A stretch of DNA of 62,935 nt, filler included, from Folioceros fuciformis (taxonomy: Eukaryota): NCBI GenBank assembly GCA_049999805.1. It is 12 parts of 12 records of this genome, joined end to end, with 100 filler letters (N's around TTAATTAATTAA, not from the genome) between each part and the next. Parts side by side here need not be neighbours in the genome. Positions count along the whole stretch, not along the records: positions 21,708 to 36,879 come from JBNGIO010001740.1; 11 more parts are not named here. One strand, 5' to 3'. Position 1 is the first letter of the stretch. Every line of letters begins with the position of its first letter. Below the pieces are notes generated by a model, which saw only the letters and a program-made list of their open reading frames with translations, was not told the origin of the DNA and did not search any database. Position numbers and translations under genes: made by a program. Of the stretch, positions 19,201 through 39,535 are shown in pieces.

Positions 19201-22200
19201 ACTCCGGGCAACGTTATTACGGTCCGCCTCTTCGGCCCAGGCCCAGGCCCAGGGCAGCGAAGAGTAAGTGGACTCGGTCCTCGGATGCCTATCTCGAGAC
19301 AAGTCGCGGGTAATCAACGTCCAACTTCTGCAGGAGGTTGGGCGTGGCTTTCCAATGGGGGGCCGCCACACCGCGCGCTCCGTGGATTACACCGCTGCCG
19401 CTGCCGCAGCGGCAGCAGCTGCCTTGAGGGGACTGGAATCGGAATATGATATTAGTATAAGGTGTGTACTTGAGAGGGCAGCGGAAAGAGGGAAGGAAGG
19501 CAGGCAGGATCCGGGGTGGCCTATTGAAGCCAAGCCGAGCCGAGCCGAGCCGCGTAGATCGTCATGCAGGCAGGCAGCAGTCTGCAGCTGCAGGCTGCGG
19601 CAGGCTTCTGCCACGGCCGCAGCCGCTGGCACTGCAGCAGCTCGCATTGCCTGTTCGTTCATTCACACACAGCGCAGGCCGCAGGAGGAGCAGCCAGCAG
19701 CCAGCAGCTTCATGTCGTTTTGTAAGAACATCCGAGTCCCTCCAAGGGCAGGGCAGGGCAATGCAATGCAAGGCAAGGCAAGGCAAGACAAGACTATGCA
19801 AGGCAAGGCAAGGCAACATTACGTGCTTGTCACCTGTTGCTGTGCCTCTGGCTGCTGCTCTGCACCCACCCTTGTGGACACTGGTGGGGGCGGGGCGGAG
19901 AGGAGAGGAGAGGAGAGACTGGGACATGGACCGGGACACAGACCCGGACCAGGACCAACCTGGCCCCGGCCGGCCCCACGGATCGGGTGCGGTCAGGCCT
20001 CGAATCCCGCGACGGTTGCATCCGCCATTCATTCGCAAGCCCTAACCCTGTGCCAGAATGTGGTGGAATCATAATGGAGGCATCTGCTTTTCCATGTCCA
20101 AACAAGCCTGGAAAGTTATGTGGCACCGCTTCCAATTTCCCTCTCGCAGCCTCGCTCACCACACTCTCCACCTCTGCACTGCACTGCACTGACTCCCCCT
20201 GCCTGGGCCTGCCTCCACCTGCCTGGGCCTGCCTCTCACTGACTGACTGCGTGGCGAGTCACGACGAGAGGGCCTGCATGCCTCCGCCTCCCCGCGCTCG
20301 TTCTCCCGCTTCAACCTTGCTTCCATCCCTTTTCACTTCCTCCCTTCCTTCCTTCCTTCTTTCCTTCCTTCCTCCCGCTTTTCCTCCCTTCCATAGCACC
20401 ATCATTCCCTAACAAACCCTACTCCTCCTCAATTCTACACACCCTCTGCTGTCGGCGCCACCGACGAAACTCCCTCCACCTGACAACCTACTCTACTCCA
20501 CCTTCGTCGCTGCCGCCACCTCCCTCGTCAACCTCTCCTGCTCCATAAACATCTGTATGCATGCAAGTACTACTACTTTCTCCATCAGGCAAGGCAAAGC
20601 TCCAAGCTCCATGCTCCCCCCGCTTCTCCTCCTCCTCCAAATGTGAATCCGGATGATACCGCTCCGCGACTCGACCTGGTCCACGCACGAACCAAACCAA
20701 CCAACCAACCCCGCCTGCAGCATTCCGTATGTCCCTTGACCACGACGGAACGGAGCCCTAGCCCCAGCTGGCAGCCCCAGCAGCGTCCGTTCCCGCTGTC
20801 GTCTTGCATCACCCCCCCATTTACAGGCGCAGGAGGTTTGCAGACAAGCAAGCTGTCTGTGATTTTCTTGTCTTACACTTCCCACATGATACGATACGCA
20901 GCAAGGGCGGTTCCCTGGGTTCCCAGCGCCAGCCCGCCCGCAACCCGTGACCGTAACTTCACCTCACCATGTCATCAAATCCCCGCTTCGCCGACCCCTC
21001 GCACGTACAACCCAGTACAGTAAGTAACTAGAAGCCACCTCACCTCGTCAACGTTCTGTCATGCTGCCGTCCCGACGGAACGGCAGTGCCGCAGCCACGC
21101 CATGCCCCAATCCGATTCCCAACATCTCTCATACCATTTTTTTATCAAATATTCTCATGCTATAATCGGGCTCGGCGTCACCACCGTCCCGAGCACCCAG
21201 ATTCTTTCTTCCCTCTTTCGCTTATTTCAATTCAGGCGAGTCAAATGGAAGGCTGGCCTATCCTCGCCACGCCACGCCACGCCACGCCACGCCTCACCTC
21301 GCCTCGCCTCGCCTCGCCCAGCGGGCGGGGAACGCCAGATTTCAGCATCCCCTCCTTGTGGCGGCATTTTGTCGCCTTGTCTGCGTCGCTTTAAATTCAA
21401 AATCTGGCGCACACCTTCGCCCGCGCTCACCCCGATGATGCAGCAATCTACGTAACTTTGTGTACATTCTATTCAACAACAAAACAACATGTGCAGCCGG
21501 GATTTGGGCACCTGGATTTGGATTTGTGCACTCCATGCCGTAATCAGCGTCTCTTAAATCTCAACGCAACGGTAGATAATATCCAAATCTCGATGCACGC
21601 ATAGGGCNNNNNNNNNNNNNNNNNNNNNNNNNNNNNNNNNNNNNNNNNNNNTTAATTAATTAANNNNNNNNNNNNNNNNNNNNNNNNNNNNNNNNNNNNN
21701 NNNNNNNAGACTGACAGCCGAGCCGGGTGTAGGAGGAAGGACGGACGGCACAGATGCGGGCGGACGGCAGACAAGGCAGCGGCAAAGGAGACTGCGCGAT
21801 GCAAGGCTAGACAACGCTAGGGCGGAGGACAGCCAACAACAGGTGCAGAAGACACGCCTTCCAGAACCAGATGGGAGGGCGAGGAAGAAGAAACAGGGCA
21901 AGGGCGAGGGAGAAAGCGAGGCAAACCTGGAAAGGGAAGGAAAACTCGAGAAACGCCCAGACACTGCCAGAGTGCCAGAAACGCCACTCCCTTTCCCATT
22001 CTCTCACAATGCTCCATTTTACCCGTCCATAATTCTGTAAAACTGCAAAATGCCACTTGGACAACGTCCTGGCGTTTTTGTACAGTATAGTACATGCTCG
22101 CACTCGCTGCATCTCTGCGGCTTCCAATATTCGCTCAAATTTTCGTCACTCTTGCCTGCATTATTCTTACTTTCGTATTAATTTCGACTAGAGCGATTCC

Positions 22201-22304
22201 TTTTCAAATTTTCTCAAAAAACACCCCACTTGAAGTAATTTCAAGTGCCCTGAGATAAAAGGGGTTAGCCTCCAGGGTCCCAATCACGATTTATTTCAAG
22301 TGAA

Positions 22305-22466
22305 TAAAACCCTAAACCTATTTTTTAATAAGATATATTAATTATAACAAAGGTAAAAAAATACTAAACAACATACATGGTGTACTATGAACCTACATGG
22401 CTAAACCTAATCCTAATCCTAAGACTTGGCTAACCCTAATCCCTAAACCCTAAACATGGCTAAACC
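22305..22466. repeat. Telomere-like (AAACCCT/TAATCCCT) units immediately 3' of the kinase ORF
   Basis: AAAACCCTAAACCTA near 22307 and TAACCCTAATCCCTAAACCCTAAAC at 22431-22455. Confidence 0.7.
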
Positions 22467-23902
22467 CACATGTCTTCGAAAAAAACGTCTTTCTTAATTC
22501 TACTTGTTGTGTTATTGCGTGGCATCCGATAAATAAATCTATTTAATTGTTCAAGATTGTTGATGGAGAGTTTTTTGTCTCTAATACTTCGATTCAAAAT
22601 CATTCGGGCGACATATTCCACCCATATTGCATTAATATTAGGGTAGCTTTGGTCCCACTTCCCTTGAGCAATTTGGTGCACACGTCTCCAAGTTTGGTCC
22701 AAAAAATAATTTGGTATCCTTTGTTTGGCAAGATTTGTAAATATAACCTCGGAGCCATGTTGCATACGTGATAATCCAAAATCTATAATAGACGCTTTCA
22801 ATCCATGTGTTTTGATTATTTCTCTTTCGTTGTTCGTGATATATAATTCAAGACTTTTGTCGTCTCCTGTATAAGTTATAAGAATGTTTTTGGTATGGAG
22901 ATCTCGATGTTCAAACCCATATGCGTTTTCTGCTACCTGCAAGGCCAAGGTTACTTGTAACAATACACTTTTGACTTCATGCAAGGTATTAAATTTAAGT
23001 TTTGACAAAGAAATCCCGCCATCTTCTTGCGCAATTATCATGAACCTTTGATTAGGTTCATAGACCATAGGAAAGTTGGACTTCTCCATCGCTGCCCATT
23101 CTGACTTGGCATGCATAAAAAGCTCAGAGTTTAGAAACTCTCCTCTCCAAATTTCATTCCATTTGTTACATATAAAGTTGGTGCAGAAAAAAAGAGCATT
23201 CGGATTTCGTAAGGTCGCCAAAGTATTGCCAATCAATAACTCCTTAAAATTATCATCCTTCTCAAGATTATCATCCTTTTTCATAGGTATCACTTTAATT
23301 ATTTGACCATTCACCTTAAAAATTTCTGCATAAAAACCTTCACCAATCTTTGTCACACATGGTCTTATAGAAGAGTCAAAAAAAGATGAATAGTGGTGAT
23401 ATAAGTCGTCATAATATGCTTTTGAAGCACCGTCAAATCCGACACCCTGAGGATTACCGGCCTCCGAATCTTGCAAAGAAGTTCTAACACCAAAGTTCGG
23501 AGGACTACTACAAAGCTGCAAAGAATTTCTAACACCTAAGCTCGGAGGATGGGCGACGTTGAAGCTTGGAGAACCCATGAGATCAAAACCTAGTAAATTA
23601 ATGAGATCAGAACCTAATAAATGAGTGGTGTATGAACTCAGCTCTACCTCCGGCACCAAATTCGGCTTAGTTCTAACACCAAAGTTCGGAGGACTACTAC
23701 AAAGCTGCAAAGAATTTCTAACACCAAAGCTCGGAGGATGGGCGACGTTGAAGCTTGGAGAACTCATGAGATCAAATCCTAGTAAATTAATGAGATCAGA
23801 ACCTAATAAATGAGTGGTGTATGAACTCAGCTCTACCTCTGGCACCAAATTCGGCTCCAGACCTAGAGCATGAGGTCGAAAATTTTGTTCAAAATGAGGC
23901 AT
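22460..23902 (-). CDS. Divergent, intronless haspin-like Ser/Thr kinase
   Basis: KIGEGFYAEIF (Gly loop), IIKVIP (Lys), KELLIG (alphaC Glu), SVLLQVTLALQVAENAYGFEHRDLHTKNILI, ASIIDFGLSR and W..SYPNINAIWVEY. The FEHRDLH context and the C-lobe are haspin-like. First ATG at 23902. Confidence 0.8.
   Translation of the reverse strand: MPHFEQNFRPHALGLEPNLVPEVELSSYTTHLLGSDLINLLGFDLMSSPSFNVAHPPSFGVRNSLQLCSSPPNFGVRTKPNLVPEVELSSYTTHLLGSDLINLLGFDLMGSPSFNVAHPPSLGVRNSLQLCSSPPNFGVRTSLQDSEAGNPQGVGFDGASKAYYDDLYHHYSSFFDSSIRPCVTKIGEGFYAEIFKVNGQIIKVIPMKKDDNLEKDDNFKELLIGNTLATLRNPNALFFCTNFICNKWNEIWRGEFLNSELFMHAKSEWAAMEKSNFPMVYEPNQRFMIIAQEDGGISLSKLKFNTLHEVKSVLLQVTLALQVAENAYGFEHRDLHTKNILITYTGDDKSLELYITNNEREIIKTHGLKASIIDFGLSRMQHGSEVIFTNLAKQRIPNYFLDQTWRRVHQIAQGKWDQSYPNINAIWVEYVARMILNRSIRDKKLSINNLEQLNRFIYRMPRNNTTSRIKKDVFFEDMWV
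23480..23856. repeat. Near-identical 189-bp in-frame tandem duplication (63 aa x2) in the kinase N-terminus
   Basis: GTTCTAACACCAAAG starts at 23481 and 23670. The peptide PNLVPEVELSS...PPNFGVRT is repeated. Confidence 0.95.
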
Positions 23903-24559
23903 TGTAGGATGCTTAGAGCAATGGTACCTTGATTCAACTAAATACACAAGATATAGTTCTAAGATCAATATGCATGATAAATCTTTACGAAAGTTCTTGC
24001 AAGTCGACACTTACAAGAGAAGAGAAAAAATGGTTGAGGTTGTCCATTATGGTAAGAGCTAACCTATTCATAGTGAAATACTTTGTAAACTTTCCAAATA
24101 AAGTTAGGGTTACTTTCATTTTTAGTACAAGTAAACCATATGTTTATGCGTACACCAAGAGGTAAGTTAAGTGCAACTTGCTAAATAATGACATAAAGAC
24201 TATGCATAATGCCAACCTAGTATATTCTTTAATTAGGTCAATATTATTCTAAATCCTAAACTTTTAAATTCAGAGTTAATTCTAACTTGGGTGTAAAATT
24301 GAGATACTTCTTCTTTGAGTCATCTTGTTGCTATTCAAGCATGTGTGCTTAAGAGCATTGTTACACGGTACATAAAATTGGTGGAACGTGTGCAGTATGT
24401 TACCTGTATATTTATTCTCAATACGTTATTATATTTAAAATCCTCAAATGACCATAAAGTATGTAATAAAATACTTAACAATTAATAAATAATAAATGTA
24501 TCACGAAGACATAATACTCAAAACTTAAATCTCAAACCACATCAAGGCATCACAATCAA

Positions 24560-26600
24560 GAGGCCTCGAGCTAAGAATAACCTACCATTCAAGATCCAAG
24601 TTTTCATCATCATGCTCACAACTAGGATCAAGTTTTTCCTTTCCATCCTTGACCTCATGTCCTTCAAGGGCAATCTTCAACAAGGTGTTGTGACGTTGCC
24701 TCCACCTTTTGCTAATAGTTTCACATTTGTTTTTCACCAACTTCTCAGCTTGCTGAGATGTCAGCCTATTCCTTTTCTTTGAGTATATGAGTTCATATGT
24801 GCTCTAGGCCCTTTCACAAGGAGAAGAGCTAGAAGGTTGAGACAAGATGTGGATGGCAAGCCTTTGGAGTTGAGGTGTTGATTCCCCATAGTTCTCCCAC
24901 CATAGGGTAGGGTTCATAGACTCTGTTGCCCTATCATATTGCATCTGGCTTGATCCAAATAATCCGCTTTGGGTTATGTACAAGACAAGTTGTTCACGGA
25001 TGACCTATTGTGCGCTAGATCCTGCACCCATGATTGCATCCAAGTATGTATGTAGACTTGACATGATTGTTGCGTTTGTTTTTTTTGTCATCCCCTCCAT
25101 ACTTTGGATCTAAGATTGATAAAGTTGTTCCCACTTCCTATCAATGATTGCCAAAATCTCACTTGTCTTCTCATGCCCCACAACATGCCCCACAACTTGA
25201 GACAAGTCAAACACCTCTTTATGTGCTGCCACCATAGTTGGATAGATTTGCCCCATAACATGATGTGCCCCATCAACATGCCTCAATAACTGTACAAAGG
25301 CTGTAGTGATGGAAAGGACAGCCCTTATTCCTACCCACATACTATCACCATGACGTCCATTTTCACTTGACCTTTAAGCTCTTGAGCTAGAAGGCCTCTA
25401 GGCTTCCCAAGACTTGCTCACCATGGTTTCCTGGAGACTATTCTTCACTTGAACAAAAAACGCTGCAAGTGTATATGATGGATAGCAAATCTACTAGCTA
25501 CAGGCCTCAACAATCTACAATTGAGTGTGTCCAAAACATAGCCAAGGATGTATGATGGGGTGGTGATGAACTGAACCACTTATTGAGCTCGCTGAATGAT
25601 GGGTTGAACCACTTATTGAGCTCGCTGAATGATGGGTTGTATCCAATTGATGCTACTCATTGCTTCCAGGAGTAAGTCGAGGATGTGAGCTGAGTAAGGT
25701 GTGCAAACAATGCCAGGATATTGTGCTTCAATCATCTGTCTAGCAATGCCAGGATATTGTGCTTCAATCATCTGTCTAGCAATGCTAGGATATTGTGCTT
25801 CAATCATCTGTCTAGCACATTTACAATTTTCCAGCAAGTCTGTAACCACTTGAACCACATTCTTACAGCCTACCCCATCAATTGCTTGTTGAAATAGGTT
25901 TGCAAGGTACAAAGCCATTTTCTCACGCCCTGGTGTGTCTTCCACCTCTAAGAAATACATTCCCTTGCCGCAAAGCCACTAACACATTTACCAATAGACA
26001 GTTTTGTTTATTACTCCAACCATCACTCAAGATTGAGCAACCAAATGTCCAAGAGGCTTTGACGTTTTCCAACTTCTCTTTGACTGTGGCCTTTTCCTCG
26101 TTCAGTAGAGTAGCTCACAAAGCGTTGAAGTTTGGGGGCTTATATGAGTTACCTATGTTGGCGATTGCACTGACCATGGCAATGAAGAAGGGAGATCGAG
26201 CAAGGTTGAATGATAACCCGTGTGCATAGAAGCATCTCGCCACAGCTGCATGTACTAGTTTTCTTCGTGGTAGCTCCCATGCCTTCTCCACTGTGGTTTG
26301 CTGAAAACTCGAGCTGCCAAATTGATGTGTTGATGCAACGCATGAAGATATCACCTTCGTCTTTGCTCCATTCAAAAGCTTTTCTTTTACTACACTTGGC
26401 ATTGTGGAGCATGCTCCCACTCCACCTCCTACACTTGTATGGTGACATCTAGCCCTTGTGCTTGTTGCTTGGAAAGACTGAGCACAAAATTTGCATGTGA
26501 CCTTCTTCACTCCAAATGTGCGACCTTCCAAGATCTTGGAAATGCTCCTACACATCTTGAGACGGTAATCGACTCATGGTCCCTAGACAATAAGAAGGTT
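24560..26600 (-). pseudogene. Degenerate hAT-family transposase (BED-like finger, DUF659, hATC dimerisation domain)
   Basis: Fragments VTCKFCAQSF...RARCH, RCFYAHGLSFNLARSPFF...YKPPNFNAL, IDGVGCKNVVQVVTD...AHILDLLLE, and WWENYGESTPQLQRLAIHILSQPSSSSPCER...KKRNRL. Stops, frameshifts and short internal tandem duplications are present (36 bp x3 near 25705-25815; 33 bp x2 near 25572-25637). Confidence 0.88.
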
Positions 26601-27947
26601 CAGAGCATTGCAAGAGGGAGGTGGCCAAAGAAGTTGGTATGCGAACAAGGATGTACATGTAAAAGTAAATAACATTGGTACATATTTTGCACGTATAAAT
26701 ATAAATGTATTCATTTAAAATACAAAATCTAGGTAATTGTGCTTACTAGTCCTCTTCATGGTTTGTCTCGTCCCCATTGTTACTTCCTTCTTCTTCTTCT
26801 TCTTGAGTCTGCTCTCTTGCATGTGATGATGTCCTTGTTGTCACCTTGGTACAAACAAGTGAGCTCTTCCATGCAATCCATCAAGAAGACTTTGCTTCAT
26901 ACCTACATGAGGAAAACAATGCACTTGTACTCCTAGCCAATATTCTGCACTTGGATCTCCCAAAGTATGAAACCAAATTTCAAGTAGCTTTTGCTTGCAA
27001 AGATGTTGCAAAAGAGTACAACATTTTCTTCTTAGTTCCTAATGGTCTCAAAGATGTTGGAAAGAATCACTTTTTAAGTAGTATTTGTTTGGACATTAGG
27101 AGATGCTCATCAAGGTCCTCCTCGGGGAGAGTTACATACAAGCTCTAAGAGAATGGGATAGTCCACATGGCTTCCATCTCCGGAGCCATTTTATGGTCTC
27201 ACAAGTCAATGCAAGTAGAACTAGGAATAAATGTCGGCAAAGTTTGCTACAAGATTGGAACACTAATTTTATCCATCCAAGGCCTCTTGAGTGCAAGGGG
27301 TGCGTATTGGAATCCACAAGGGTTACAAGGAATGTTATTTTAATAGGTGTTCGTGACGTAGAAAACTCTTAACCTTCTTGTCTTAGGATGTGAGGTATGC
27401 CTGTGGCGGTCTCTATACCCTGCAGGGTAGTGTGACCGCCCATGTCTCTTTGCTGGCTTTCTCGATGCTTGAAACATGATCCAGATTTGATTGTTATTTA
27501 TCTATTCTGTACCAAGTAGAGGTATTTCTTTTAAAGGTCTTGTGACTCATGGACATGGAGGAGGCACGTGCATGGATCTCAGCTGGCCAATGCACTTGTA
27601 GAATCCGCACAGTTTTCGAATACAGCGCGCTGAGCTGAAACGATCCAGGCTGCTGCTGCGGTCTTGGATTGTGGCTTACTAGCCTCTTCGGATGTATCGC
27701 GGGGTGGAAAACCAAGATTCTGTGAATACGGTTGGAGCGCTCGGTTGTGGAGGTGGATGATTTTTTGTGATCGATGGATCAGGCTCCAGAGCCGCGGCTT
27801 TGTCATCTGAAAGCTCTCAGATGACAAAAAAACGTACAAGCTGCTATCGAGGGATGGCAATCGGCGAAGGATACCAAGAACAAAATTAGGTCAAGGGCGT
27901 GCGGTTTGCACTCTGGAAGAAGCAGACTGCATTTACGTTAGACGGGC

Positions 27948-29114
27948 ATGAGTTCCAGTGGAGCCAGTCCAGAGAAGCTTCAGGAGTACAGGGTAGTGGT
28001 CCCCTGTCTGCCTCTCTACGATTCCCCGCTCTGCACCCGCCTGGGAACACAAGCATGGGAAGGCCGTCACCTGGCTGTTGTGACGAACTCCTCTGGTGAC
28101 ACCCGCACTAGCCGCTCGGTTGAGCTGCCGCATCTGTCCAGGTCACAAGCCCTAACCCCAGGCCCCTCTTGAATTACGTCTCGGTCGTATTGACTTGGCC
28201 ACGGCATCTAAAGCCTGTCACGGAGAATGAGAATGAAGTGTGTGCTACTTTCAGGTCCCCGATCGAGGTGATTCTTTGTGAAGACGGTTACCAGTGTTGG
28301 TTGGCCCCGGAGGACCTGGATGCCATCGTTCCAGTCCCTCACCACCTGCATTACCGGGCACAATTGCTTCCAGAGAAGGAAGTGAGGTTGAGGACCGCCC
28401 TTGTCATAGACTTCGTCATGGTGGCGGATAAAACTGAAAACAGCTATCTCTGGGGAGGGACTTGCGGACCTAACTATGACTGCAGTGGATTAGGTGATTT
28501 TTGGATGAGCCTTCTCTGCACGCTGCTTCCATCGGATTTCAGTCTTGCTGATGATATGGGTCTAGTCGTGTGCACTTGGCAGTTCGAAGAGCGTTTGAAG
28601 CCGCTGGGATTTGGGTGCCGAGGGATGCTTACCAGCAGGTGATGGTTTGGATTACGGGGCTGCTTGCATCCTGGACTTCCCTCTGCCCCCGCCCTGAAAT
28701 GAGTTTCTTGCTCTTGTTCAGGAGGGTTTTGCGCAACGGGTGCCGAACAGCGACGTGCACACTGGCGATCTAGTATTGCTGCTACTTTCTTCGCACCTTC
28801 AGTAACGAGGACTGGACATTATTATTATTCGCTGAACCTAGAGTATGGTGCAGGTCTTCTTCGGTAGTAGCAAAGCAACTCACGTCGGTATCATTTTGGA
28901 TGACGCGCTGCCTGAGGCCCAGAAGAATAACTCCGCGTTATACGGCCCCGAACGTCTGCCTCCTGTAAGGTTCTTACACAGCTCTGGCAAGGAATATGGG
29001 CATGGAAGGATCGAGGTGGATAATCTGGGCCTGCCACGGGGTCCTGTCGCCATGTATTACTGTTCCCTGTACAGGGGAGCTGGAAGGGTGTTGCAAGTCT
29101 TCTCCCTTCAGTAG
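27948..29114 (+). CDS. Cyanobacterial-type SH3b + NlpC/P60 peptidoglycan peptidase, 266 aa. Exons 27948-28141, 28255-28493, 28583-28638, 28722-28772, 28854-29114
   Basis: Four phase-compatible GT-AG introns (113, 89, 83, 81 bp). Spliced protein: LPLYDSPLCTRLGTQAWEGRHL...EVILCEDGYQCWL...YLWGGTCGPNYDCSGLVRRAFEAAGIWVPRDAYQQEGF...GDLVFFGSSKATHVGI...FLHSSGKEYG. Confidence 0.9.
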
Positions 29115-29564
29115 GACTCGTGCACAAGTGAATCCTTAGAGCCTATCACGAAGAAATCTATACCACAACAGCCACATTACCCAAACGAGCTAACGAGTTA
29201 CTCCTTCACACGTCAGCCAAACTGCCATTGACGAACATCTCAATGAGGCAACTGCCTGACGATAGTCAGAAGAAACCGACAACTTCGGACAAAACGTCAG
29301 GACTCATATTTCCCTGCTTCGTCTAACAGAGCTTGGCAACCGCCTGTACAGGTAACAAAACATTGTGGGAACATCTGAAACAAATGTAGGCGACCGCTAC
29401 CTAAGCTTGGCATGCTGCTCTCATAATTCCGTGAGTGCAAGTTGCCTGCACTTTTCCACTCCCAAGGAAGTGGACCCACCGTTTCCGTGGGATTCCCTGG
29501 AACAGCCCGCCTGATAGGCCGTCCACCTCATGACCCCCCCCTGTCATCTGAGAAAAAATTTGAC

Positions 29565-30812
29565 TCAGATTTTCCTCCTCTTCAAAATCATTAGCTTGTC
29601 ATCGACGCTCCCTGGATTTATCTGCAACAAACATAGCATCAGTCAGTGTAGGTTGCTGTGGGAAGTCGACGGCTCCAGTGCAGGCACGATAACGCAAACC
29701 ACGTTGGCAATGGTCATCCCGGCAGCGCTAATTAAATAACCGAAAGCAGCAACCTTCAAGTACCTTGTCTTCTGCAACTAGTAGAATCTGTCTGACTTCA
29801 TCGTCTTCTGTGAGGTCGGCTGGGGTCTGCAGAGGAAACGACTCATGTAAGTTAGCGCTACGGCTCTCGTGAAGTCCACTGTACAAATGGCACGTCGATC
29901 GAGACTGTGCCCGGAAACAAAGGTGCAACCTGATAGGAGTTATTCTTCAAATTCGGCAAAGCTCCGTGATTTAACAATTGGCGCACGACATCCGCATGGT
30001 CACCCCGTGCGGCATGATGCAGGGGCTGCATGCACACCCACAAAATGTTTTATGTGCAATTGCACAGAAGAACCTGCGTCAAAGAAGATAAGGGACATGC
30101 TCCAAGGTCCGTTGCACAAACCGTGTCGCCGTCTGTATCGGTGGCTTGCAAAACCCGTTTGAGCTCCTCCTGGCTCTTCGTAGCTCTCAACAACATCTGA
30201 ACAATTCCATCGAACCCTGCACTCCCCAAAGCACCCGCCCTGATCACAAAGCCGGAATTCATACAGCCCACAGACCTTCGATCCGATACTTAACCAGCGT
30301 GAACAAGGACAACTCACCCCCAGCAGCGGCATCATGCAAAGGCAGAGCCCCATCCTCATCCCTAACGTCCACGCTTGCTCCAGCTGCTAAAAGAAGCTGC
30401 AGGTCACCAGTCATTCTAGCCTGACCACCTTCCCCGCCCAGCTCCAAACTTAAACCATTTCAATACCTGTGCACAAGGCATATGGCCGTAGAGACATGCG
30501 AGATGCAGTGCTGTATCACGGTCCTCGCCATACGAATCAACGGCTACTGTCAATCTTCCTGCAGACAGAACCAAATTCTGCCTTCAACACACAGAACGGA
30601 CCGGAACGCCATCAGATCGAACAATCGGTGCAGAACTCAAGACCCCAACCTAACGCCCGGGACAAGCTCTCCGTGTTGCCAGCCTCAGCAGCAGAGAGAA
30701 CAGCTTGCAGGTCCTCAGGAACCTCCACGGCATCATCTCCAAAATTCCCAGTCCATTCATCATTTTCCCCGTTCTCCCTCCCACCTACGCCAGAAGGCTG
30801 TGGAACAGCCAT
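29565..30812 (-). CDS. Small multi-exon ankyrin-repeat protein
   Basis: Exons encode SAAEAGNTESL, DTALHLACLYGHMPCAQ, LLLAAGASVDVRDEDGALPLHDAAAGG, PLHHAARGDHADVVRQLL and TPADLT. Inferred last exon is 29621-29565. Confidence 0.85.
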
Positions 30813-32071
<1,259 letters not shown>

Positions 32072-32686
32072 ACATTCCGATGTGCAGCTTACACATCAGA
32101 ATAATTTTGATCTGAGTACCTACAAGCGGTGCATCGAAATGTCGTGCGACATAGTCGTTTTGTTGTTGAACAGAGTTTTTGTTGGAACTGTTTTTTTCAG
32201 ACATCTGACAATTTAGGCACTCAGACCCGTCAAGAATTGGGTGCCAAAGAAGTGGGTGTGTGATCACCCCGTGATTTATCTGTACTAGAGTTCGATTCCG
32301 ATTCCGATTCCGATTCCGATTCCTCCAAGTTGCAGCGGGCTGAGCTGCGCCAGTCCCAGCTCCAGCCCCTACACTTACTCGTTCTGGATGTACTGAGACT
32401 TGGGTTTAAACCCTCATGGCTTTCGTTTTTCGTTTGCCGCGGCAAGTTTCCTTCGTATCGATCCATTTGACAGTCCATCGATACTGGGACCTTGTTGGCG
32501 ACTTGTCACATAATCTATACCATGTGCGAACATTGAAGCACATATTTGCTATGGCCGTCTGTCTTCGAGAAAACACTGGCTGCGCTATGCGTGTGGGCTT
32601 CATGTTCTTAAGTTCGAGTTCACGGCCGTCGGAACCTGTTTAAACACATTCGAATTTAGAATACAGCTGAAGTCCGCTTACTGCCC

Positions 32687-35370
32687 ATGCTGGACCAGAA
32701 ATCGCTCACAGCAGTAGGGGATTGGAAATGGGGATCGTATCACAGTGTACAAGGTAGCAGTTGCTGGCCAGTCCAGGCCGGAGACGAGAGCGATGCCGCC
32801 ACTGCGGGTCGTGAAGCTGTACGAAATTGCGCCAAGTTCCCCGATGTCCAGGATGCCAGCGCCTTCATCTGCTATCTTCTCATCCACAATGAAGATGTTC
32901 TAGAATTCACGCCGCCCACTCCGGGGGAGCGGCAGATGGAGTGGCTGGCCCTGCTTCTCCAAGAGGGTCCCTCGTGCTGAAGTACTTCGGTGTGCAGAGA
33001 GGAGTGTGAGATCGAAATCCACAAACGCCTTCATCTTTGCTTCCCGATTCCGGAATTACGCAGGTGAGATGCTGGTGTTGGTCCTGATGGGTGTCTGGAT
33101 GCCCCGAGGAGAGGGTGCAGGGAGAGACTTGGAAGGAGAGTCTGGACAGTCAAACGATCTCTCGGTTCCGGTTCCTCTCAGAAGCAGAAGTTAGATTGAT
33201 ACACTGATTGTGTCAATTCAGCAGCGCTGAGCAGACAACGTCTGGTCGCAGCTTGGCCATGAGACTATTGTCCTTCAAAGTTCCATGAAGTTGTCCCCGG
33301 ATCCCACGATTGATTGTCCAAGTTACAACTCCCTGGAGCACTGTACACCGAGGTACTTAATGCTCAAGCCCGTGCTGCGAATTGAAATGGATGAAAGCTT
33401 GTCAGTTTTTGCTGATGCTTGTCCTCTTGGGCAGTCGGAGGTCCAGGAAGGCGAGGCTGTCTCAGCAGCTGTCTGAAGAGAGCGTCCCCAGCAAGATCAT
33501 GATAAAAGTTGCCAGGGACGTGTTTCTGGAACCCACTGCCTGTACCTAGGATGGGCAAGCTGCTTAGCAGAGTGAGGACTACTGCTTGAAAGAATTCTCT
33601 TAATAGAACCTGGAGAATCCTGTCCTCCCGTCATTCCTATGCAGTCCTGCAGGAGAACCTTGATACCAGGCCCGATGTGAGGGACACATGGAAGGTGGTA
33701 TAATGGATGTGGAAACTCCTTTCATACAGAAAAGACTTCGTGAAATGGTGAGAGAACGTCTGAAGTCCTACTTCAAATGCAAAGTCCCACTTCCAGGCAG
33801 CTATATTCTGAAGGGATGCCCAGATCCCACGGCTCTGCTTGAGCGAGACCAAGTGGCAATTGTGCTGTGAGTCCTCAACTACTCTCTTGTGGTTCCTGTT
33901 AATTGCACTCAGCTTAGAGCATGCTGACGCGGCTTCTGCAGAGCGAACCCAGATGTTGTGAAGGGTGATAGTCTACAGGTACCCAGGCATTCATGAGGGG
34001 AATCCTCATTTCTTTCAAGCTGTGTATCCTGAAGGCTTGCTGAGCATATATTATCGGAAACGGTCGGTATGGGATTTTCTTCTCAACCAAGGGCCCACGC
34101 TCTGTTGTAGATGAAATGGCAGGAGGTGATACGGACGCGGACGACTTCCTCCTCATTCAAAATCCAGAGTTGAGGAAGCGAGTGAGGCATTCAGATTCAG
34201 TCTTTGTAGAAAGCGCAGGCCCTTGGCCTTGCGTTTCAACTTATTCGGTGTGTCGCAAATTGTGGATTCAGTTTTTGGCTAGCTATCCCTGGTTGGCTCC
34301 AATTATCACTTCTTCAGATGGTAACGAGAAACCGAAGCTGGCTCCTGATAATCCTGAGGTGGCTGAACTTCAGCATTTCGAAATAGCTTTGAAAGCCGTC
34401 TTCAGTCCCGGACCGAAATAGGTGCTCAATGCACTTCTTCTGTTCAGCACCGCTTCCGATGCCTGACGAGTGACGTTGCCCTCCGTTGCACTCTTTGTAT
34501 GGCATCCAAGAAGTGGCTTTCTACCCAAGATACAAGCATAGAGAACCTTATCTCTGGAAGTGATTGTGAAGAACATGACCAACACATCCGACATCAACTA
34601 GAAGAAAAGTGTTTAACGCTTGCCGGGCTAAGCTACAAAGCTGTTGACGCACACAAGCGAGGATTAAACGTGTGCGAGATACTCTGTTGTATGCTACTTC
34701 CTACTTTTGCGAGTGGCCTGTTCCCTTTTCATTTCATTGCACAAGGGCTTCGGAAAGTTGCAGGTCTTCCATTCAGTGGAGCCGTTCCTGAAGTGGACAA
34801 CACGTTTCACTACCTCTTCATGCCGCGGTTGTTTTGAAGTGGGACAAACTGCATCCAGCTTGTGGAGTACTCTTAGAAGGCATCGGCATCTGTTATTTTT
34901 AACAAAACAGCATTAAGCATTGAGGAAAACGTAGCAAAATTTGAAGAGCGCTACACATTTCACAGAAACGTGAGTACGCGAGTTTTGAGTTGCAAATTGT
35001 CCACAGACCAGATCAGAAGTCCGGCCTCACATCTGTTGCAGGAATTGTATGGGAGCGCCCATCATGGAGAAGGAACGAAGAACGCTGAGCTCATTGTGCG
35101 GGAAGCAGTAGCTGTGTGTCTCGTGGTGCTTCAGCGGGAAGACAAAAAAGAGGGGGAAAGGGAGAAGGCCCGCGGGGCAACGTCGTGAAGAAAGCTGAGG
35201 TTTGCTTGGCGTGTAGCGGTTGATGCTCTCACGTCCATTGAAGCAGGGGAAGATGCGAACGACTTCGTTGGAACGTACGGAATCACAAACCTGAAGACCG
35301 AGAAGCACATGGACAAGGAGGGGAGAGGGCAATTGCTCCAATGTAAAAGACACTATGAAACGCTTTTGAG
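32687..35370 (+). pseudogene. RDR-gamma (RDR3/4/5-like) RNA-dependent RNA polymerase, disrupted and N-terminally incomplete
   Basis: Segments ETPFIQKRL...KVPLPGSYILKGCPDPTALLERDQVAIVL, VIVYRYPGIHEG, GIFFSTKGPRSVVDEMAGGDTDADDF, YKAVDAHKRG and FAWRVAVDAL. In-frame TGA near 33959 and at 35186, plus a frameshift near 34045. Confidence 0.75.
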
Positions 35371-35566
35371 CTTCATCATTCACATCACAAACAGGCTGTG
35401 TACATTGCTCAACTGTTGCGACATACTGTACAGAGGGAACTGAGCGAACTAAAGAGCTCAGTCCTGAAATCAGAAAACCGGACAAGACCTGGTTCGCAAG
35501 CTGGCGTGGTTTCCTTCCAGTGGAGCACGTTTCAGCAGGCTGCCCCCGGAATGTGGACGGAACTGT

Positions 35567-36879
35567 CTAGTTCCCGGGCACGAACTTGGTAGCATAGGCC
35601 CAGGCATTGTTGTTGGCGGGGTCGGCAAGGTGGTCGAGGAGGTTCTCAATGGGGCCTTTGCCAGTCACAATGGCCTGAACGAAGAATCCCAAGGCAGAGA
35701 ACTGCGCCAGCCTGCCGTTCTTGATCTCCTTCACCTTGAGATCGGCAAAGACATCGGGGTCGTCGGCCAGGCCCAGAGGATCGAATGCACCACCGGGGTA
35801 CAGAGGGTCTGTCACCTCGCCCAAGGGACCACCTGCAATGCGGTAACCCTCCACAGCGCCGATGAGGATCACCTGGGCAGCCAACACCGCCAGAATACTC
35901 TGTGCGTGAATCAGAGACGGGTTGCCCAGGTAGTTGAGCCCCTCGTCGGAAAAGATGACAGCGCCTGCCTTGAACCACACTGGCTCCTGGATTGGCACCC
36001 CGTTGAGAGCCAAAATCTCAGGGGTCACGATTCCCAGGGTTCCCAAGAGGGCCCAGCGGGAGTGGATCACCTCCAGCTCCCTGTTCCGGGCGAAGGTCTC
36101 GGGGTCGGCCGACAGACCAGCCGTGTCCCAGCCGTAGTCGCCAGGGAACTCGCCCTTCAGGTAGCTTGGGGGTTCGCCGGAGAACGGGCCTAGGTACTTG
36201 GGCCTGTCTGGGCCGTACCTGCGCAGCACAATCCGTGCTTCTTTCTTAGATCACGCTGAATGACGCCAATCACCTAAGAACAAACATAGGCTCGACGCTC
36301 CCGAAAAAACTTCTGTATTGAGTTCCAGGTGGGAGGGAAGACAAATGCACTGCATTGAGGAGAAATCTTAGAGTTCTTGTCTGGGATAGAGTCTGATGGA
36401 GACGAAGAGAGCAGAGGCCATTGCAGAGAGCTTGCAGGAACAAGTTAGTTCCGAAATCAAGATTCGTGCGTCCAATAATGGACATAACTCGACACTTGTG
36501 TCCACACAACTTCAATGCAAGGTTCCCGGTGGAGGGACGAAATGCAGTATCTTGAGAAGTAAAGCAATCCGAATATAATGCATACACAGACAAATTCTAT
36601 GCAGCGTGCGCACATCCGGGCACAAGCCAATCAGGACAAACAAGGCAATGAAACAGAGAATCCTTAGCAAGGACGCGAACAAGAAATTCGATAGAACGAC
36701 CGTGAGCAAAGTAGAGAATCATTGCGCGGAGTCTAGGATGTCTTAGGATGAATGAATAGGGTAACTTCCCTGCAGTGCAATGCACAATTGAGCAAACAGA
36801 GGAGCAAGAAAGCAGGGCTACCAGATACTGTCAGGCTTGGTGCTGGCTGTCTTCCTCATGGTGATCCTCGACTCCACGG
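35567..36879 (-). CDS. Lhcb: Major LHCII chlorophyll a/b-binding protein (Lhcb1/2/LhcbM-like); transit peptide cut by the gap. Exons >36879-36822 and 36218-35567
   Basis: [28 protein letters not shown]...ELEVIHSRW...[11 protein letters not shown]...FVPGN; 603-bp GT-AG intron inside the Trp codon. Confidence 0.96.
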
Positions 36880-36979
36880 NNNNNNNNNNNNNNNNNNNNN
36901 NNNNNNNNNNNNNNNNNNNNNNNTTAATTAATTAANNNNNNNNNNNNNNNNNNNNNNNNNNNNNNNNNNNNNNNNNNNN

Positions 36980-39535
36980 TTGTGTGCCTGGCCATGGGCA
37001 TGTTACTCAACTCTTTCAGATGATTCTGCATCTGCAAGGCTTTGTCCGTGGCTTGAGCCGCTGGCGGTGGTCGCGGTGGTTCCAAGCTTGTTGCAGAGAA
37101 TGCGGCGTCAACGTGCACGGTTGTCGCACCTGCTTGGCTGACGCGGAACAAATGGAGTGCTGTGTCCCGTGTCGCCGTAGCGTCTGGCGCTGAGAAGCTG
37201 GGCGGCTGCACCTCATGCCGGGGGACGCTGTCCATGCGGAAAACCCCTGGAGATGACAGCAGGAAATTGAGCTCCCCGTCTGCTCCATGCTCGCTTTCAT
37301 TAGGCGGCGGGAAGATGGATGTCCTCCGCTGGTGGTGGGCAGGATCATTAGGATCAGCGACGCTCATCAATCGCATGTAGTCCACAGCAGATGCAGCAGC
37401 ATTGCTGGTTCCACCGCTGTTCGGATTTGAGTCCTGAGCAGTCATCTCTCCATACGCTAATTCTTGCCTGCCAGAGTTCTCGATGACGACTCCTGACTCA
37501 GGCGGAGCATAAGGAAAAGGAGCCCTTGCAATGTGACGCATGAATGCAGTCGGAACGTAGAGAGGAGGACTGGCCATGGCGGAGCTCGCCCAAAGATAGT
37601 CGTAGCTGGATCCGTTGCCTGGAACTGATTGGCGCTGCAAGAGTGGATTCAGATCATTGGCAGAAGTGAGAAGTTCTCGCTCCCCACTTCCTGTCGAGTG
37701 AATCTGGTCACGGTGTAATGATCCCTGCGACTGCCCGGGACTTACCATCGGGACCGGTGCCCCGGGCCCGCTCGATAGCCACTGATTGTGGAATTGCAAT
37801 TGGTCGTTACCCGATCCAGTGTCGGGCGTCCATGGGGATCTGGAAATGGTTCGGGAAGCGGAAACGTGAGCAGCTTCTGGTCCTCCCAAGTTCCCTACAC
37901 CTTCCATATGCATGCTGCCCCAGCTTTCAATGCCCTCCATGCCCTGTGGGCCTTCAGCATTTCTGCTCCATTTCCTTGTGCTCATGCCTAGTCCTACGGG
38001 TTGAGTCTGATCCGTCGCTCGACCTAGATCGTTCCAGTTCAAGGAAGCGATACCCTCCATCCTCTGATCAGCCTCGTCTTCATGATCCTGTGCGATAATT
38101 CTAGAGGCAACGTCTCCCCATGGATTCACACTAGAGATCCCTAGTTCTTCCAAATCACATGATTCGTCCCCAGCCTGGTTCCGATCCCAGCTGCCTTGGA
38201 TGGACTGAGCAGCACTGACGGGTGGCGTATGATCTTGCATCTCATGAATTCTAGTCCTAGACCACTGGCCGAGGTCTCTGTCAGAGGGGGTTTGCTCCCA
38301 GCTGCCCCGACCCATGTCACCTGCGCATGCGGAAGAGGCAGTCGTCGTAGTGGCTATAGTGCCCCGGTCTCCAGGATTGAAAGCAGCTGGTCCCAGGCCT
38401 GTTGATCCATTAGAAGCCCGCTGCTGCTGCATGTTAGTCGGACTCTCGGTGCTAGTGCCGGCTGTGCAGCCCAGCTTCTCCCTCAAGGACTCGTAGATAT
38501 CCAGGACATGAGATGCATGGTAGTTCTTGCTGCCGCCTTGATCCGGTTTCCCAGCTCCTTCAACAAGCTGTTGTGAATCGGACTCGTGCACGTAAGAGTG
38601 GCCCGACACCAATCCAGCCTTTAAGCCCTGCACGATCACCAATGGGCACAACCGAAAGCCGTGAGTCTAGCTAGCGACAGACGCTGTGACGGAATCACGC
38701 ACAAGCGCAACCAACTTCTTCAATGCAGTAGTGCGCAGGTCCTGTACCTGTCTCTGGTCCGAGGAGCCAGACGTGGCAGCAGCTAAGCCGGAATACGCTC
38801 TCAACTGCGAGCCCGGAGCCACAACAGTGGGAGGCAAGCTTAAGACGTGCACACTGGCCGCCTGCTGCGCCAGACTCATCGCTGTGGTGGAATGAGTGGT
38901 CTCCCCGCGGTGACGAGGACGGGCAGCAGCAGCACGAAAGAGGGGATCCTGCAATTCAGAGTAACCGCTGGAGACATCGCTCCGTTCTTGCAGGTGCTCT
39001 TCCAGTGCTAGCTCAGAGCTGTCCGAGAGCGCCGTTGCCGTACTCCTGTCATACGGCAGGCCCGACAGGACCTGCTCAGAGCCTGCAAAGCACCGATTAC
39101 GCATTACATGAATTTGCAACGTTTGCCGCAGCCGCGGAGGCTTGGAAGCAGCATCGACTGGACGGCGACAACATTGACAGAAGCAGCCAACGCACCTGAC
39201 GTGGATCCGGAGCCGGCGGAAGCAGCCGCCGCAGCGGAGGGCAGGAGGCCGCCGCTGTCCAGGGTGCCGGCTACGGCAGCGGCCTCCACGGCGCGCTGCA
39301 GCAGCAGGCGCACGGAATTGGACGAGAATCCAGAGCGGGAACCGGCGGTCCTGGCGAAGTTGGTCCTGGTGTTGGCGCCGCGCAGGGTGCGGGCGGCGTC
39401 ATCGTACGCCCGGGCAGCGTCCTCCGGGTTGTTGAAGGTGCCGAGCCACAGCCGGATCTTGTGCGTGGTGTCCTTGATCTCCGCCACCCACCGGCCCGAA
39501 GGCCTCTGCCTCACCCCGACATACCGCTTCCTGGG
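36980..39535 (-). CDS. AP2/ERF transcription factor, ERN/RAP2.11-like, partial at both ends. Exons >39535-39196, 39082-38748, 38627-<36980
   Basis: [28 protein letters not shown]...[21 protein letters not shown]. Two phase-compatible GT-AG introns (113, 120 bp) join three ORFs into more than 770 codons. Confidence 0.85.

Follow-up and report, generated by a model that had tools for sequence, protein, structure and literature searches.

Sulfur-poor isoforms of light-harvesting proteins were previously known from one cyanobacterium and one green alga. Mazel and Marliere reportedly described in 1989 (Nature 341:245), in Calothrix/Fremyella PCC 7601, a sulfur-starvation phycocyanin from which methionine (Met) and cysteine (Cys) are eliminated and whose operon is expressed under sulfur limitation. 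The algal case is LHCBM9 of Chlamydomonas reinhardtii, a type I LHCBM isoform of the major light-harvesting complex II (LHCII) that, according to Natali and Croce (PMC4344250), contains 4 sulfur atoms versus 6-7 in the other LHCBMs; in the same paper, its overexpression under sulfur deprivation is ascribed to this low count, and the two Met residues kept in its mature chain are proposed to be possibly essential. The work by Ota and co-workers (PMC4724957) describes LHCBM9 as barely detectable in sulfur-replete cells and reports that, without sulfur, its homologue LHCB1 (1779_t) of Parachlorella kessleri goes up 2050- and 5106-fold and the other LHCB genes fall. Here, a gene found in a window of Folioceros fuciformis DNA (the window being the whole stretch analysed, 62,935 nucleotides with filler) is compared with these systems. 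Judging by domain matches, alignments and transcript contigs, this locus holds a nuclear gene that is expressed and encodes an apoprotein of the major LHCII (Lhcb1/Lhcb2/LHCBM type), and it is one of a set of LHCII paralogues, from bryophytes and some green algae, whose predicted mature chain is devoid of sulfur amino acids. The most likely meaning of a sulfur-free LHCII, to which a probability of about 50% is given, would be sulfur economy of the antenna.

The visible product of the gene consists of VESRITM followed by a chain of 228 residues that starts at RKTAS and, by translation, holds 0 Met and 0 Cys, so that the absence of both residues from a mature chain of about 228 residues, as claimed by the first-pass annotation, is borne out (0/228); the three motif replacements listed there, including QVILIG and RLAQFSALG, are all present as quoted. 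The relatives to which the protein was aligned derive from searches with the window protein, with a profile of the sulfur-free matches and with the Coccomyxa protein, which together gave 255 proteins; 163 of these, 200-300 residues long, were kept (92 fused, doubled or truncated models were dropped), and of the 163, all but one align over 205 or more residues to the 216-residue core, which leaves 162. The head of the list from the profile search with the sulfur-free alignment is made up of fused or doubled gene models of 330-470 residues, which are excluded from all counts. Across the 162 rows, five columns hold nearly all the sulfur; they correspond to query residues 57, 63, 119, 172 and 175, which we take to be spinach positions 73, 79, 135, 188 and 191. 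In 110 of the 162 rows these columns spell M-C-M-M-M, but the window protein has L-I-I-Q-A there. Specifically, on the minus strand, the Met73 position is a Leu codon (CTC, 36047-36049; M 122, L 40 among the 162 relatives), the Cys79 position an Ile codon (ATC, 36029-36031; C 112, I 44, M 6), the Met135 position again Ile (ATC, 35861-35863; M 138, L 22, I 2), the Met188 position Gln (CAG, 35702-35704; M 141, Q 12, L 9), and the Met191 position Ala (GCC, 35693-35695; M 110, N 19, A 14, C 11 and V 6, these five commonest letters covering 160 of the 162 rows).

The replacement of these residues is concentrated well beyond the general divergence of the protein. Against five canonical LHCII comparators, to which the window protein is otherwise 78-84% identical, all 5-8 Met/Cys sites of the comparator fall within the 35-48 differing positions of 216, with hypergeometric P values from 2.5e-6 to 1.8e-4 across the five; as this is a post hoc test of a trait that a clade shares by inheritance, these values measure the targeting of the sulfur sites and not independent events, and they show that the sulfur sites are hit far more than the remainder of the protein. 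Moreover, the route to zero sulfur varies: the set L-I-I-Q-A belongs to the window protein and its nearest relative, L-I-L-Q-A is found in Calypogeia, Coccomyxa and the rows P0019 and P0211, L-I-L-L-N in Sphagnum, and further sets exist. Seven rows of streptophyte-like and trebouxiophyte origin (P0020, P0043, P0205, P0241, P0203, P0225 and P0251) read L-I-M-M-N, keep just two Met (at 135 and 188) and look like intermediates between the canonical and the sulfur-free forms. We infer that selection lies behind the loss of Met and Cys.

Not all the distinctive positions concern sulfur. At 10 positions, the sulfur-free proteins of bryophytes share a consensus that sets them apart; three of these are sulfur sites (at the remaining two sulfur sites they are likewise changed, but not uniformly), and the seven others are D111N, W128L, L84I, S190A, N227K, Y24F and F40Y, and the lumenal loop VKFGEA is changed to VPIQEP. 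These seven hallmarks and the distinct loop agree with the idea of a specialised LHCII paralogue, with, for example, a particular place in the photosystem II or photosystem I supercomplexes or in state transitions, whose Met/Cys loss is a neutral by-product of an old divergence, and so does the mature N-terminus RKT..SIWYGPDR, which we take to resemble the phosphorylatable N-terminus of the Lhcb2 type. Nevertheless, a by-product of drift seems rather improbable: it leaves unexplained the replacement of all five conserved sulfur sites and the fact that Met or Cys occurs outside the five canonical columns in 0 of 20 sulfur-free rows, whereas the canonical rows carry a mean of 0.66 such extra residues, with at least one in 50 of 110; furthermore, different lineages arrive at zero via different residues, and intermediates with 1-3 Met+Cys exist in several groups.

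Apart from its complete lack of sulfur amino acids, the window protein is by sequence, in all the features tested, a regular major LHCII. The product of exon 2 (216 residues, P0001) matches Pfam PF00504 Chloroa_b-bind over profile positions 1-162 of 162 (E 2.2e-46; 158.7 bits, cutoff 22.3), and its best single-domain matches in the PDB are chains of the Lhcb1/Lhcb2 type, aligned over residues 1-215 with E values of ~1e-120 to 1e-123. The top database matches of the window protein carry the names LHCII type 1/2, its identity to seed-plant LHCII is 81-84%, and a protein atlas search returned generic chlorophyll a/b clusters. As regards the Lhcb9 of Physcomitrium as a possible alternative identity, the name Lhcb9 does not occur among the 60 PDB chains listed, and no named Lhcb9 sequence was compared. 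The motif WYGPDR, the N-terminal trimerisation motif of LHCII, is intact and is reconstituted across the splice junction. Likewise, all 11 aligned residues that presumably serve, in spinach numbering, as chlorophyll ligands and in the helix-bridging Arg-Glu ion pairs of LHCII are kept (Y24, E65, H68, R70, Q131, E139, E180, N183, R185, Q197 and H212), and in the 13-row alignment A1 10 of the 11 do not vary, Y24 being the exception; the intact ligands and the whole trimerisation motif had been stated by the first-pass annotation as well, and the count of 11/11 agrees with it. The protein would thus be expected to fold and to bind pigments like an ordinary trimeric LHCII. Canonical Lhcb1/Lhcb2 structures of seed plants and mosses (such as 1rwt, 2bhw, 8c29, 5zji and 8htu) share with it the length, the fold family, the ligands and the trimerisation motif; conversely, the 4 single-domain LHCII chains among five structure alignments examined (4/4) all carry M73, C79, M135, M188 and M191, none being sulfur-free, and the window protein also differs from them in the lumenal loop (VPIQEP, LNYLGNP).

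The comparison with the described sulfur-poor antennae follows from these features. Like LHCBM9, the window protein is a major LHCII isoform with less sulfur than its paralogues, the normal pigment binding in reconstitution being a property of LHCBM9, whose authors see in it a saving of sulfur (PMC4344250); LHCBM9 differs in that it keeps 4 sulfur atoms and has a demonstrated induction by sulfur deprivation, whereas the chain of the window protein has none and is known from sequence. As the window protein contains no Met at all, both of the positions at which LHCBM9 retains one (135 and 188 by alignment) are replaceable in a conserved, expressed protein. The likeness to the Calothrix phycocyanin lies in the reported purging of Met and Cys from a light-harvesting protein; the difference is that the phycocyanin belongs to the unrelated phycobiliprotein family and to a prokaryotic operon, whereas the present protein is a eukaryotic membrane protein of the chlorophyll a/b type.

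The gene lies on the minus strand of the piece 21708-36879 (JBNGIO010001740.1). The 3' part of exon 1 (36822-36879, by translation), whose 5' end is lost at the piece end 36879/36880, encodes the end of the transit peptide (7 residues, VESRITM), whose closing Met, at the processing site, has its codon at 36857-36859, and then the start of the mature chain (RKTAS); the intron (36219-36821, minus strand, 603 nt, GT..AG) is followed by exon 2 (35567-36218, minus strand), which extends from the last base of the Trp codon and the Y of WYGPDR, put back in frame by splicing, to the C-terminus (KFVPGN) and a TAG stop codon (35567-35569). The reading frame is open over both exons, the splice sites are canonical, and the guanine-plus-cytosine content is ~0.44 in the intron versus ~0.60 in exon 2. 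Everything further 5' (promoter, start codon, most of the transit peptide) is hidden by the contig linker at 36880-36979 (N44 + TTAATTAATTAA + N44).

Transcript evidence comes from run X1, a single transcriptome-like run kept as contigs, whose RNA nature is guessed and which was placed on 35400-36879; its depths are not used to rank genes, and uncovered gene parts are not counted as evidence. One X1 contig (depth 1598) joins 36215 to 36819 ('cut +3') and so skips precisely the predicted intron, no cover is found within the intron or the downstream spacer, and a 288-nt contig is identical to 35819-36106. Two more contigs, at ~90% nucleotide identity, cover 35559-36106 and belong to a copy that lies outside the window; a second sulfur-free LHCII copy is therefore transcribed in run X1. 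The placed contigs show 40 listed differences, mostly from this second copy (23 more are unlisted), of which 36 are synonymous taken singly; the other four are D91E, D159E, L176F and L194F, the last remaining Leu if a neighbouring change in the same codon is included, and none of the 40 creates Met or Cys. Since the listed differences are nearly all synonymous, both sulfur-free copies are under purifying selection. Three other X1 contigs have a loose end just before 36050 that, translated by hand, reads as the canonical M-L-G-A-L-G-C-V-F-P (Met73..Cys79), so that an ordinary sulfur-containing LHCII is present in the same run. Taken together, the spliced contig, the 288-nt match, the synonymous differences and the canonical contigs indicate a gene that is expressed and under purifying selection beside normal paralogues.

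These data also bear on whether the locus is a genuine gene. A pseudogene, an assembly artefact or a contaminant could be suspected, because a contig end truncates the gene and short contigs joined by linkers make up the window, yet such an origin is exceedingly unlikely in view of the open frame, the canonical splice sites, the spliced and the exact 288-nt contigs, the near-synonymous sister copy, and neighbouring open reading frames that are those of eukaryotic nuclear genes (a Haspin-like kinase and a ribosomal protein of the L16/L10e family). Decay into a pseudogene, in particular, is rejected by the open frame, the X1 contigs and the synonymous differences of the sister copy. The first-pass annotation had spoken of targeted substitution rather than decay, and this stands, with all comparator Met/Cys sites changed, the ligands kept and the changes in the sister copy nearly all synonymous. 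It had also named outcomes that would count against a sulfur-sparing protein, among them substitutions shared by all paralogues and a gene that is not expressed; instead, canonical contigs are found in X1 and copies with 4-8 Met+Cys in liverworts and mosses, and the spliced and exact 288-nt contigs show the gene in the transcriptome-like run.

Among the relatives, the number of Met+Cys in the 216-residue core is usually 5-7. Zero is found in 20 of the 162 rows, the window protein included, one in 2, two in 9, three in 11, four in 9, five in 61, six in 29, seven in 19 and eight in 2. The closest relative among the matches listed is a transcript at 92% identity, which is likewise sulfur-free. 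A sulfur-free row of the liverwort Calypogeia fissa is 88% identical to the window protein, those of Sphagnum jensenii and S. troendelagicum, two of the three Sphagnum species with deposited sulfur-free proteins, are 83-85% identical, and the copy of Riccia fluitans (86%) has a single Met. Sulfur-free algal rows come from Mesotaenium endlicherianum and from Coccomyxa viridis and C. subellipsoidea, a genus that we take to be trebouxiophyte, and also from chlorophyte-like records; two Met+Cys are counted in Apatococcus, Symbiochloris and Haematococcus and three in Sanguina. Full-length sulfur-free precursors contain no more than 1-2 Met and 0-1 Cys, each of them N-terminal to the core, and both Coccomyxa precursors have the initiator Met alone. 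In the same genomes, copies with 4-8 Met+Cys stand beside the sulfur-free or low-sulfur ones in Calypogeia (P0119), Riccia (P0166/P0167) and Sphagnum (P0051/P0054). Parachlorella kessleri, a trebouxiophyte (PMC4724957), belongs to the same class as the sulfur-free Coccomyxa, and a link of its 1779_t gene to the sulfur-free set is a possible lead.

On the other side of the distribution, no sulfur-free row of a vascular plant occurs among the matches listed, and every vascular-plant row has at least 5 Met+Cys; within the same matches, the Marchantia rows in the count have 6, and there is no row of Physcomitrium. Marchantia and Physcomitrium probably lack a sulfur-free LHCII, because such a protein should rank among the top matches of a search with the window protein. 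As a separate observation, many seed-plant models of ~400 residues named LHCII type 1-like (P0122-P0151) contain PF10143 beside PF00504, or two LHCII domains, look like fused or read-through gene models and do not enter the counts.

This distribution changes what can be said of the origin of the trait. The first-pass annotation knew of no land-plant equivalent and proposed a convergent form in this lineage; the sulfur-free proteins of Calypogeia fissa, Sphagnum, Mesotaenium and the two Coccomyxa species, with the one-Met protein of Riccia fluitans, contradict the uniqueness. The proposal that land plants possess a sulfur-sparing LHCII survives and gains breadth, while uniqueness and convergence in this lineage do not hold as they were formulated there. 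A lineage-specific convergent invention would fit the placement of the window gene among embryophyte LHCII and of chlorophycean low-sulfur forms among chlorophyte LHCII on the trees, but it is very unlikely, given sulfur-free relatives at 83-92% identity in a liverwort, in Sphagnum and in other records, with which, and with the one-Met Riccia copy, the window gene groups at a support of 92-96 in the SH-like approximate likelihood ratio test (SH-aLRT).

The trees address whether the trait arose once or several times. For the IQ-TREE analyses, 44 of the 162 rows were dropped, all with at least 5 Met+Cys and from the first search, which thins the seed-plant block. Both FastTree (midpoint root) and IQ-TREE under LG+G4 pair the window gene with its 92% relative, and this pair adjoins Riccia, Calypogeia and one further row (SH-aLRT 96, LG+G4). 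With the sulfur columns kept, the sulfur-free rows of Sphagnum, Mesotaenium and Coccomyxa join the window group (SH-aLRT 88). In a second IQ-TREE tree, built under a site-mixture model with the seven Met/Cys-carrying columns removed, Coccomyxa goes back among the chlorophyte rows, Sphagnum stands separate within the embryophyte group and Mesotaenium lies on the backbone. On this tree without sulfur columns, the 22 rows with 0-1 Met+Cys, LHCBM9 not being among them, need at least 8 state changes; forcing all 22 into a single clade lowers the log-likelihood by 59.4, with a p of 0.063 in the approximately unbiased test, and one old clade of low-sulfur LHCII is thus not clearly rejected by the alignment. 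This last result also lends something to the proposal of a specialised paralogue of old divergence discussed above. A bolder scheme, which is put forward tentatively and is unlikely, would see in these proteins an old, green-lineage-wide class of sulfur-free LHCII that already existed about the time when chlorophytes and streptophytes separated, or earlier. Bryophytes, zygnematophytes and trebouxiophytes would have retained it, vascular plants and, it seems, the model bryophytes Marchantia and Physcomitrium would have lost it, and it would be swapped into the antenna at low sulfate as a eukaryotic counterpart of the cyanobacterial sulfur-starvation phycobilisome. If this were true, neither Met nor Cys would be needed for the folding, pigment binding and trimerisation of LHCII.

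Sulfur economy of the antenna, the preferred explanation, would operate through the sheer amount of the protein. LHCII is often named the most abundant membrane protein on Earth. As LHCII is among the most abundant proteins of the green cell, an isoform free of sulfur would spare Met and Cys for other uses; its only sulfur would lie in the transit peptide, which is cleaved and recyclable, and the antenna could be built or kept on little sulfur. By analogy with LHCBM9 and the Calothrix phycocyanin, such an isoform would gain weight at sulfur shortage. Several points weigh against this explanation. The promoter lies outside the window, and induction by sulfur limitation stands by analogy only; the gene, whose transcripts are seen in X1, may be constitutive, unlike LHCBM9; the saving per protein amounts to only 5-7 sulfur atoms. 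Furthermore, the hallmarks unrelated to sulfur make specialisation for another role possible, since the non-sulfur diagnostic changes come together with the VPIQEP loop. Many of the organisms that hold the sulfur-free form are aeroterrestrial or poikilohydric. Their habitats match nutrient-poor, rain-fed sites but match oxidative stress equally well.

In a further explanation, an LHCII without Met and Cys would survive high light, desiccation and rewetting better, and sulfur content would not be the selected variable. Singlet oxygen and peroxide attack Met and Cys more readily than any other residue, and the Met residues removed here lie, in canonical LHCII, within membrane helices beside the pigments. 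Such an oxidation-robust antenna would suit the named holders, which are bryophytes and algae that tolerate stress, live aeroterrestrially or form lichens; the bryophyte set has moreover lost one Trp (W128), and run X1, in which the transcripts occur, shows no sign of a special treatment. Conversely, other oxidation-prone residues are not generally reduced, as 5 Trp, 8 Tyr and 3 His remain and one of the diagnostic changes, F40Y, adds a Tyr, and the low-sulfur LHCII precedents, LHCBM9 and its Parachlorella homologue, are tied to sulfur deprivation in the studies cited above; on balance, protection from oxidation is a doubtful explanation of the trait.

Beyond the sulfur economy known from LHCBM9 and from the cyanobacterium, the conservation and expression, in bryophytes and several algal groups, of an LHCII with no sulfur at all would mean that elemental sparing reaches land plants. 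Such a protein would also be a natural proof that the two Met residues retained in LHCBM9, suggested to be essential in PMC4344250, are dispensable, and it offers a ready template of a Met/Cys-free LHCII for reconstitution, labelling and oxidation studies. Full-text literature searches found no paper on sulfur-free LHCII in bryophytes or streptophyte algae, and the text of Alboresi 2008 (PMC2323573) on the Physcomitrella antenna has no occurrence of sulfur, methionine or cysteine. The oversight of the sulfur-free form may be due to its apparent absence, among the matches listed, from Marchantia, Physcomitrium and vascular plants.

The window as a whole consists of 12 pieces and 11 linkers (N44 + TTAATTAATTAA + N44; 22 N runs, 1997-61299), with genes cut at the piece ends and adjacent pieces not necessarily adjacent in the genome, and tblastn finds one LHCII locus in it. 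On the same contig as the LHCII gene, an open frame of 516 residues at 22463-24010 (minus strand) contains a Haspin-like kinase domain (PF12330, E 2.2e-27), and an open frame at 30965-31495 (plus strand) resembles ribosomal protein L16p/L10e (PF00252, E 1.3e-17) and is probably one exon of a cytosolic RPL10 gene. Lastly, the next piece carries at 36924-38651 (minus strand) an open frame of 575 residues, rich in Ser, Gly, Pro and Ala, that continues into the linker.

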